64,000 nucleotides of DNA, taken from NCBI GenBank assembly GCA_963664395.2, contig OY761159.2:544001-608000 (forward strand), read 5' to 3'. Position 1 is the stretch's first letter; every line of letters starts with the position of its first letter. This stretch comes from Candidatus Binatia bacterium. GTDB taxonomy: Bacteria; Desulfobacterota; Binatia; Bin18. Under the pieces are notes generated by a model. The model had not been told where the DNA came from. It did no database searches and saw only the letters and a program-made list of their open reading frames with translations. Position numbers and translations under genes: made by a program. Shown here one piece after another: positions 7,123 through 8,801 of this stretch.

Positions 7123-7143
7123 TCGAGCGGCACCACCGCTCAA
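7123..7143 (-). promoter_or_regulatory. putative bacterial SECIS element for the TGA at 7152-7154
   Basis: Minus strand TTGAGCGGT-GGT-GCCGCTCGA: 9-bp stem (2 G-U), loop starts with G at +18 after the TGA; same register as 6558-6576. Confidence 0.7.
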
Positions 7144-8801
7144 CAACAACTTCAACTCGGAGGTGCGGCTGGCTGATAGTGTGTGTCGGTTTCCGTTGCA
7201 GTTTCGGCACTGCCGCTGGATGCCCCTCCACCCGCGCTTGCTACTTTTTCGCTTTGCTCCCCGTTTGCCGTATTTCCTACGGGAACACCAACAATCCGGA
7301 ATTTGTGCGATGCGATGCTTGAGTTGATTTCAATAGTGTGAGCGTCGATTATACCCCAGTCACTGTACTGCTCATCATCGCAATACACCTGTACCGCCTT
7401 CGGGTCTGGGAGTTGCGTCACCTTCCAACGTGTCGCTTCCCCACGGCGTGCTGCAGTGGCTGCGTAGGTTGAGACATGCAACGTCCCGTCGGTGACCTCA
7501 TTCCGAGCCTCACAAATTCCCAGATTCGGAAAGTCGACACCTTCGACTGTGGGTAGCTCAAACTGGGCGGCATGTTTTCCTTTATACACATTCGTCCATG
7601 CCCCAGGCCCGCCGATCTCGCTCAAGATCAGTAAGCCGTTCAGCTGACCACGTGGATGGGGTTCATCCAACCCAAACGTCCAGGCAAAGCGATCCTCGTC
7701 GTCGGCAAAGAAATCTGGCCCGTATTCTTTTTCCGCCACGGCTTTGAGACGCTTCTCTGTGGTAACGTCTCCAACCTCGCGCGCCAGCATTAACGTCATG
7801 GTCAGCCAACGTGGATCGTCAAATGCCTGCACCAGAGACTTTTTGGTGTCGTTCCAGCCAAGGTCCCGTACCCCAGCCTCATACAGCGCTAAGCCAAACT
7901 CCGGGGCCTGAGGATATAAATAGAATAACGGGGCGAGCATCGACAAACCGCTTAAACCAGTCGGCGGTGCGTAAGCGAATTCTTCGAGCGGATCATAATA
8001 AAACGCGAACGACGCAATATCTCCACGAGCGTTGCGAGTGGTGAAGTGCTTCTTCGCAAACTCAATCCATTGGTCGTAGACCCAATGCGTCTTGCAACCA
8101 AAAATCTTGTCATACAACTGAAGGCTCAAACCTGCAGCACTCAGACAGTATGGCCAAATTTTTGTGTTTTCGCATTGTGGCCCCTGCGGGCGCTCAGACC
8201 ACTGGTCTTCCAGAAACTCCGAGATACCAGGCTGTGTCCATTGGAACATACGATCATTATATCCCGTGACCTGGAACGGCTTTGCCCATTTATTGTCACC
8301 CGAGACATAGGAGTACGTGCCGAGTAATAAATTAAAAAACCCACGAAAAAAGAGATTACCATCCGCGCCTATGGGGTCTGGCTGAAGGCCCCAAGGCTCG
8401 ACCCCGTTGGCAGTCCAGCCCGGCGGATCGTAGCGCCCGCGCATATGCTCAGGCATAAAGACCAGCCATTCCGGTGGGTAGGTATCCTGATGCGGGTCGT
8501 GGCCGATGTAGGTCAGCCAGTCGACGGCGCCCCAATACGTGACATAGCGACCCACCAACTCATCGGCGATACGCGTATAGACCTCACGCCACGCCGGGGT
8601 CTGGTCGGCCATGAGCGGCAGGGCGTATGACGTTTCGGAGAGATCGAATCGAGGAAACGCACACATCGGCGGGGTGGTCGTTCGATCCCACCAGGGGAGT
8701 GGCTCACCACTACTGCTCCAGTCGTCTTGGGTGGTGGCCTTATCCCAAATGAACCGCAGCCAGCCTCGTGCACGCGGGTTGAGACCTTGCACACTATTCA
8801 T
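7140..8801 (-). CDS. linalool dehydratase/isomerase-family protein; probable selenoprotein with C-terminal U-S-C-C tail (ends at 7152 if the TGA is a true stop)
   Basis: GPQCENTKIWPYCLSAAGLSL aligns with the LinD catalytic segment [34 protein letters not shown] resembles DPIxxxNIMYxG; the 3' end reads CCG AGT TGA AGT TGT TGT TGA; GGAGG RBS before ATG 8801. Confidence 0.8.

Follow-up and report, generated by a model that had tools for sequence, protein, structure and literature searches.

Introduction

The linalool dehydratase/isomerase LinD of Castellaniella defragrans is the closest match in the Protein Data Bank (PDB) to an enzyme encoded on the minus strand of a 64,000-nucleotide stretch of Candidatus Binatia bacterium DNA (assembly GCA_963664395.2, contig OY761159.2; the whole stretch is called the window here). 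The gene, referred to below as the Ldi-like gene, ends in an in-frame TGA that is followed by three codons, a second TGA and a hairpin, and the comparisons below indicate that the first TGA is very likely read as selenocysteine (Sec, U). LinD itself is a periplasmic pentamer with its active sites at the subunit interfaces. It is oxygen-sensitive and requires dithiothreitol, its catalytic Cys170 and Cys179 must be reduced, and a Cys48-Cys101 disulfide that caps the active site or substrate channel is also required (PMC6600392). The two catalytic residues are nine positions apart and are also numbered C171/C180.

C-terminal Sec with a hairpin past the stop codon is already known from SaoC, KCU-star and UXX-star (PMC13188914; bioRxiv 10.1101/2022.07.06.499078). 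The Ldi-like gene shares with SaoC (which ends Cys-Sec-COOH), the DUF466 protein KCU-star and UXX-star a UGA placed a few codons or fewer before the stop and a hairpin past that stop. The stem has 7 bp and a GGU loop in the SaoC example and 9 bp and a GGU loop in the Ldi-like gene, and the Cys-type homologs end CC in both the SaoC-type and the Ldi-like families. The Ldi-like tail also has the terminal vicinal Cys pair of the Cys-Cys-COOH tails of MerA, HgcB and SaoC. In contrast, there is no sequence relation to SaoC, KCU-star or UXX-star, and the Ldi-like motif is U-x-C-C, carried on the long arm of a large enzyme.

Mobile C-terminal redox centres occur in mammalian thioredoxin reductase (Gly-Cys-Sec-Gly), in the tail of ribonucleotide reductase R1 and in the Cys-Cys tail of MerA. 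What the Ldi-like protein has in common with these is a flexible Cys/Sec-bearing C-terminal extension and a buried active-site Cys pair. Unlike thioredoxin reductase, it has another fold and no FAD/NAD(P)H domain, and the Cys-only form is the widespread one in the Ldi-like subfamily. Because the Ldi barrel lacks an FAD/NAD domain, the comparison made here is that its tail may work like the arm of thioredoxin reductase, not that it belongs to that group.

Table 1 of a review from May 2026 (PMC13188914), which lists 119 prokaryotic selenoprotein families and subfamilies, does not include Ldi, and no NCBIfam model matches the Ldi-like protein of the window; both agree with a preliminary description of the locus, which knew of no described Ldi-family selenoprotein. 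The words linalool and dehydratase are absent from that review and from the main texts of BSepDB (PMC13326102) and deep-Sep (PMC12013277). No publication joining linalool dehydratase with selenocysteine was found in the literature, where a listing under another name is possible in supplementary tables. The mechanism class (Sec in place of Cys, and C-terminal Sec with a hairpin past the stop) is known, and Ldi is very probably new as a carrier family.

The end of the Ldi-like gene and its homologs

Read through its first TGA, the Ldi-like coding sequence occupies 7143..8801 on the minus strand and encodes 553 residues ending ...HYQPAAPPS-U-S-C-C. It opens with the ATG at 8801, and GGAGGA lies 5' of this start on the same strand. 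The 549 residues before the first TGA matched the Pfam family Ldi (PF18566; E 1.7e-10, 41.3 bits versus a cut-off of 26.1) over profile positions 66-303 of 318. Read directly from the sequence, the minus strand ends ...CCA GCC GCA CCT CCG AGT TGA AGT TGT TGT TGA, as the preliminary description had it, and continues with GCGGTGGTGCCGCTCGAG. The first TGA (7154-7152), the proposed Sec codon for residue 550, corresponds in the alignment to the Cys that opens the C-x-C-C of homologs. The tail codons AGT TGT TGT (7143..7151) specify Ser-Cys-Cys, and the TGA at 7142-7140, which lies within the 5' arm of the hairpin, is taken as the true stop. Coding potential past the UGA, limited to three codons and a stop, is kept as in bacterial selenoproteins, and its x-C-C-stop is the end found in the homologs.

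A six-frame search of 60 relatives gave 17 orthologs at 85-100% identity, all from the genus of the window and including its own genome; a search of 55 genomes of the family yielded none beyond these 17. In 16 of them, all Candidatus Binatia metagenome-assembled genomes (MAGs), a first TGA is followed by exactly three codons, a second TGA and the hairpin. These codons translate as S-C-C in 12, S-S-C in 3 and S-C-G in 1, and two synonymous changes were also seen. The second TGA is invariant in the 16, and Cys-type homologs end at the equivalent position, which bears out its earlier assignment as the real stop. The seventeenth ortholog (L019, 85% identical) reads TGC-AGC-TGT-TGC-TGA, or C-S-C-C, and has no hairpin.

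These orthologs bear on an alternative in which the first TGA is a genuine stop, the protein ends ...PPS, the tail codons are a remnant that has yet to decay and the hairpin is a stabilizer of the 3' end or a weak terminator. A change from TGC to TGA needs a single base, the 16 genomes are close kin (92-98% protein identity), so that a remnant could persist, and two non-synonymous changes fall within the nine tail bases. Against this, the nine bases and the second stop are intact in 16/16 species, with no indel or loss of frame, while the sequence past the hairpin diverges, and the sole species with TGC is the one that has no hairpin.

The protein database contained 1446 homologs at E ≤ 1e-10, and the tails of the best 120 were classed. 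Among these best 120, 68 end exactly in C-x-C-C, 15 end in CC and 29 in CC followed by 1-12 residues, giving a Cys-Cys pair at or near the C-terminus in 112. Six others end ...PPS or ...PPG, which is the TGA site, as expected if they had been cut at the TGA; the remaining two are a fragment or a longer form. The preliminary description had proposed beforehand that homologs should carry CxCC where this gene has TGA-x-CC and a hairpin, and with TGA in 16 of the 17 orthologs and C-x-C-C in 68 of these best 120 homologs, the outcome was as predicted.

Eighty species-representative loci, drawn from 509 relatives, comprised 60 Cys-type and 14 Sec-type loci, 3 without a tail, 1 fused to a DUF169 domain and 2 cut by a contig end. 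The Cys-type loci end in C-x-C-C (38), CC (14) or CC with 1-9 further residues (8). A metagenome scan added one Sec-type locus (L120), the remaining matches being Cys-type. In a 112-sequence alignment, C553 never varies, conservation of C552 is 90% or more, the first tail Cys is more variable in distant members, and the peptide Y-x-P-A-A-P-P-S is kept ahead of the Cys cluster. An in-frame UGA opposite a Cys of homologs is, by alignment, the classical Sec/Cys signature, and the UGA at the first position of the tail carries all the comparative hallmarks of a predicted Sec. So aligned, the tail is the putative selenium form of C-x-C-C-COOH, a motif that the subfamily keeps in many phyla.

The hairpin after the first TGA

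The selenocysteine insertion sequence (SECIS)-like hairpin, UUGAGCGGU-GGU-GCCGCUCGA, spans 7143-7123 on the minus strand, with its loop at 7134-7132. It has 9 pairs, including two G-U, starts 8 nt past the first TGA and presents the GGU loop at +18..+20. The G at +18 that had been singled out earlier opens this loop, and the Ldi-like gene has a G in the apical loop of a stem-loop shortly past the UGA. Because the real stop sits inside the hairpin, most of the hairpin is 3' untranslated region.

The convergent neighbouring gene allows the distance from UGA to hairpin to be compared within one genome. It encodes an AhpD-like 'peroxidase-related enzyme', a known type of CxxU selenoprotein, with an internal Sec in the motif C-H-Y-U and a fold unrelated to that of the Ldi-like protein (6285..6908, plus strand; TGA at 6546-6548; TIGR01926, 1.4e-34; Pfam CMD). 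Its 8-bp hairpin, with a GUU loop, starts at +9 past the TGA, in the register that the preliminary description had noted as common to the two genes. As a control, open frames of at least 300 codons ending in TGA were examined on contig C1 of the source assembly. A hairpin of at least 9 pairs starting 5-16 nt past the TGA was present in 6 of the 953 frames, the Ldi-like gene included, and in 17 of the 953 when at least 8 pairs were required.

The pairing is retained among the orthologs. In 14 distinct sequences 97.6% of cells were paired, compared with 36-46% when the 3' partner was slid by 1-3 columns. In eight of these sequences the closing pair is U-A, in four U.G and in two C-G. Other substitutions replace G-C by G.U and U.G by U-A, and none of the changes in the eight inner pairs abolishes pairing. 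The only broken pair is the outermost one, in 3 sequences. The hairpin structure is thus conserved, without proof by covariation. For a terminator, the role that the preliminary description had named as a competing explanation, a stem followed by a T-run would be the mark, and no such site was found between 6800 and 7300 of the window. The absence of a T-run after the hairpin and the match of its register to that of the neighbouring CxxU gene both speak against the first TGA being a genuine stop.

Selenocysteine machinery and reliability of the sequence

The source assembly of the window (5.04 Mb, 14 contigs) contains the complete set of components whose presence the preliminary description had proposed to confirm. 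A tRNA-Sec gene with anticodon tca was located by ARAGORN at C1:2573201-2573296, and SelA (526 bits) adjoins it. A SelB-specific winged-helix domain was found within a 677-residue frame, and SelD was detected above its cut-off (316 bits). The SelD match (G000:C1:4506291-4507208) lies inside a 759-residue open frame, and SelD may be fused to another domain there.

Both TGA codons are kept in contigs from three sequencing runs, two of them metatranscriptome libraries (covering 7103-7363 and 6995-7189) and one a run of unrecorded type that spans the full stretch. All four runs compared are represented by contigs, which show sequence and neither expression nor RNA ends; stretches that they leave uncovered carry no meaning. 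The sole difference between runs within the element, G to A at 7131, is a U.G to U-A variant of the closing pair. An assembly error, which would have appeared as TGC or TGT in the reads, is excluded, since both TGAs are seen in 16 independent genomes, in the metagenome contig L120 and in the contigs of the three runs.

Contig C1 was also scanned for other TGA codons followed by hairpins. This noisy and uncurated scan gave as further likely sites ...TPG-U-T..., ...GD-U-GSC... (twice), ...PV-U-P(L/V)C... (twice) and a second ...CHY-U.... With short open reading frames (ORFs) included, this second genome-wide list was too noisy to define a selenoproteome, and of its rows only the two genes of the window were used.

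Origins of the Sec-type tails

Twelve of the 14 Sec-type loci belong to the Binatia genus, and the other two are L087 and L053. L087 (54% identical) is the sister of the Cys-type L100 in the tree, far from Binatia. It reads K-G-G-U-P-S-C-TAA, and its hairpin, UCGACAG-UCU-CUGUCGA, about 15 nt past the UGA, is unlike that of Binatia; its genome has SelA. L053 (78% identical) stands beside the Binatia clade in an unresolved position and reads P-P-G-U-H-S-C-TGA, with a bulged hairpin and the loop CGUGA. On the tree, three changes of the Sec label are needed, and the well-supported branches force at least two; L098 counted there as Cys-type although its end is truncated, and L065, being too short, was not included. 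That the unrelated L087 has a TGA at the same Cys position, again followed by three codons and a stop, TAA in this case, with a different hairpin and SelA in the genome, is hard to reconcile with a genuine stop in the Ldi-like gene, and L053 adds another Sec-type variant.

The Binatia clade is nested within a gammaproteobacterial Cys-type clade. This suggests transfer of the gene into Binatia, followed by a putative change of the first Cys to Sec; on the selenocysteine reading, the Binatia lineage, which is rich in selenoproteins, has replaced the first tail Cys by Sec. SelA gave no match in the two Cys-type genomes checked (L049 and L063) and was present in the Cys-type Binatia genome. Sec-type tails tend to keep U with a single Cys, as in the U-x-S-C of L053, of L087 and of 3 Binatia species, whereas the Cys-type retain C-x-C-C. 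The U-x-S-C tails can be interpreted as fitting a two-residue U...C redox couple. Among the records used, those of the environmental MAGs with L048 (the Cys-type Binatia ortholog), L076, L078 and L093 are labelled with implausible organisms (Enterobacteriaceae, Klebsiella).

Paralogs with two predicted selenocysteines

A second Ldi-like protein, about 40% identical to the first, has TGA at both catalytic Cys positions; 21 genomes of the genus and family carry it, at 23 places in all. Its motif is ...H-U-E-N-T-K-V-W-P-(L/T)-U... (14 loci: L020-L026 and L030-L036), and a hairpin of the form (A/G)GCCUC-GGUCU-GAGGCU, with small variants of the loop, stands 12 nt past the second UGA in 13/13 folded loci. 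These double-Sec paralogs end just after the beta domain, without the arm. The genome of the window was searched for this paralog and it was not found there. With Sec on the arm of one protein and at the catalytic positions of another, the Ldi fold would have been recruited to selenium twice in the Binatia lineage, and TGA at the catalytic Cys positions of paralogs in the same genus again argues against a genuine stop in the Ldi-like gene.

Weight of the evidence for selenocysteine

Several observations weigh against the reading of the first TGA as Sec or against the role proposed for the tail. The covariation in the hairpin is not significant, as 93/500 shuffles reach the observed score. Of the compensatory changes that the preliminary description had called for, the retention of pairing through changes therefore stood, and the covariation score, lying within the shuffles, did not; the 16 hairpin sequences being close kin accounts for the latter. 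The same result leaves room for the first TGA being a genuine stop. No Rfam family reached its gathering threshold anywhere in the window, so that the hairpin is not covered by any curated RNA family. SelA gave no match in the 3.1 Mb MAG of L053, which proves little because the completeness of that MAG is not established. Two of the three residues after U vary: a Cys is replaced by Ser in 3 species and by Gly in 1. The presence of the arm is independent of the catalytic pair, and a tail-less Nocardia/Streptomyces clade retains C...C.

Taken with the evidence from orthologs, hairpin, machinery and paralogs, we put the probability that the first TGA is read as Sec, and that the Ldi-like enzyme is a selenoprotein, at roughly 0.85. 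The genuine stop is very unlikely. The whole explanation, in which an enzyme of the Ldi fold carries a Sec-tipped disordered arm and is decoded under the guidance of a hairpin, is likely as well.

Fold and catalytic cysteines

An AlphaFold2 model was built from the 112-sequence alignment, headed by the window protein, with Cys entered in place of U. The mean pLDDT was 84.7 and the pTM 0.87. The model has a helical barrel to about residue 410 and a beta domain at about 418-504, and the pLDDT falls below 50 at 510-553. The low-complexity linker pointed out earlier (residues 510-549; 7155..7274, minus strand), with its conserved C-terminal peptide HYQPAAPPS, thus lies within the part modelled as disordered. 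In a Foldseek search against the PDB, LinD chains took ranks 1-26 (E 1e-12 to 4e-11, target-normalised TM about 0.7, 17-19% identity), and other (alpha/alpha)6 enzymes ranked far below them. In the predicted architecture, the (alpha/alpha)6 barrel resembles that of LinD, a beta domain comes next, and a disordered arm of 44 residues forms the C-terminal end.

The catalytic-pair segment C210-ENTKIWPY-C219 is encoded at 8145..8174 on the minus strand (TGC 8174-8172, TGT 8147-8145). In a phmmer search of PDB chains, QCENTKIWPYC was aligned with the catalytic-pair segment of LinD, the alignment spanning residues 136-345 only, and the correspondence with the LinD active site that had been read from CENTKIWPYC held. 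C210 and C219 are invariant in the 112 sequences. LinD (PDB 5G1U, 5HSS, 5I3T) and the window protein share the barrel fold and this aligned Cys pair. They differ in that the window protein has the extra beta domain and the arm ending U-S-C-C and is paired with a conserved 201-residue membrane-anchored ORF. LinD is periplasmic, whereas no signal peptide was seen by eye in the window protein, which is accordingly predicted to be cytoplasmic.

A further comparison concerns the capping disulfide. C47 of the window protein is invariant across the 112-sequence alignment, no Cys lies near residue 101, and one could picture the tail as a structural lid, with its Sec or Cys bonded to Cys47 in place of the Cys48-Cys101 disulfide that LinD requires (PMC6600392). 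C47 is, however, absent from the tail-bearing L105, L107, L113 and L115 and present in the tail-less Nocardia/Streptomyces loci. Its equivalence to LinD C48 lies outside the phmmer alignment, and the cytoplasmic location, judged by eye, disfavours a stable disulfide. We regard such a lid as improbable. A co-occurrence of Cys47 with the tail was considered in its own right and was rejected, because neither strictly accompanies the other across loci.

Function of the arm

The following mechanism is proposed. SelB and Sec-tRNA would read the first UGA, guided by the hairpin that overlaps the true stop. The extended 44-residue arm could, by a rough estimate, span well beyond the size of the domain and would bring its selenol/thiol pair to Cys210/Cys219, either in the same subunit or in one next to it. 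Once there, it might undo an inactivating disulfide or contribute to catalysis, and exchange of disulfide and selenylsulfide between the tail and the catalytic pair would resemble that of the C-terminal centres of thioredoxin reductase or ribonucleotide reductase. By analogy with those enzymes the arm may be a mobile thiol/selenol redox centre that services the catalytic Cys pair, a tentative assignment to which we give somewhat less than even odds.

The terminal CC, with C553 and C552 the most conserved feature of the subfamily and the first tail Cys more variable in distant members, also fits a different role, in which the TGA would still encode Sec and the arm would be a tail for soft metals or metalloids (Hg, Cu, As, Se or an organometal), passing the metal to the Cys pair of the barrel or keeping it away. 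The model for such a tail would be the C-terminal Cys pair of MerA, along with the Cys-Cys-COOH proteins HgcB and SaoC. The C-terminal CC/CU of SaoC and HgcB has been tied to heavy-metal handling (Haft and Gwadz, bioRxiv 10.1101/2022.07.06.499078). Against metal binding, no mer, ars or cop gene was found among the window neighbours scanned (about 6 kb on each side); the conserved partner genes are DUF169 and the membrane-anchored ORF, whose lead to SCP2 is weak; and the docking-like Y-x-P-A-A-P-P-S peptide would be superfluous for simple chelation. We consider a metal tail possible, with doubts greater than those attached to the redox arm.

Neighbouring genes

The 201-residue ORF (8794..9399, minus strand), with a hydrophobic helix at its N-terminus, lies directly upstream of the Ldi-like gene, and the two overlap by 8 nt at the stop of the ORF and the start of the gene. 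The ORF holds this upstream position in 74 of the 80 loci, across phyla. Neither Pfam nor NCBIfam gave a match to it. A language-model search pointed weakly to the lipid carriers of the SCP2 family (rank 5, score 0.91), a family found on 14% of the cluster members. The AhpD-like selenoprotein gene adjoins the Ldi-like gene only in Binatia loci (12/80).

In 27 of 115 loci the Ldi-like gene is adjoined by a DUF169 (PF02596) gene or fused with one (e.g., L031:3043-3759 and L114:7513-8208); in L114 the fusion is in frame. The idea that the tail replaces a DUF169 partner was rejected as an exclusive rule, since DUF169 occurs in all 4 tail-less actinobacterial loci but also in 16 that bear a tail.

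The other neighbours in the window encode a LysR protein, luciferase-like monooxygenases, an alcohol dehydrogenase, a short-chain dehydrogenase and a family III CoA-transferase. One luciferase-like monooxygenase ORF (9865-10623, minus strand) covers profile positions 19-220 of 314 only, and a part resembling the C-terminus lies in another frame, from 9546 to about 9860. The region 9546-10623 may represent a frameshift, a split gene or a sequencing error.

Significance

If the selenoprotein reading is true, Ldi (PF18566) joins the selenoprotein families. Annotation pipelines truncate the Ldi-like proteins by four residues and the double-Sec paralogs at about residue 210, and the presumed functional tip is therefore unseen in databases. 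A module of a membrane-anchored ORF and an Ldi-like enzyme with a CxCC arm, often with DUF169, is widespread, and its Cys-type versions in cultured actinomycetes, such as the Amycolatopsis locus L113 with the tail ...PPCACC, are accessible at the bench.

To our knowledge, Sec almost always marks a redox or nucleophilic site. Sec on the arm and at both catalytic positions of the paralogs bears on the role of the essential LinD cysteines, whether in acid-base or in covalent/redox chemistry. More speculatively, and we hold this to be rather doubtful, the enzymes of this large subfamily may be more than plain acid-base hydratases and may use their Cys pair as a redox or covalent centre serviced by the C-terminal Cys/Sec arm, with Binatia having upgraded both ends to selenium in separate paralogs. 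If true, the Ldi-like enzymes would bring selenium dependence to the (alpha/alpha)6 hydratase/isomerase fold for the first time, and their arm would be a bacterial counterpart, on an enzyme lacking flavin, of the swinging arm of thioredoxin reductase.

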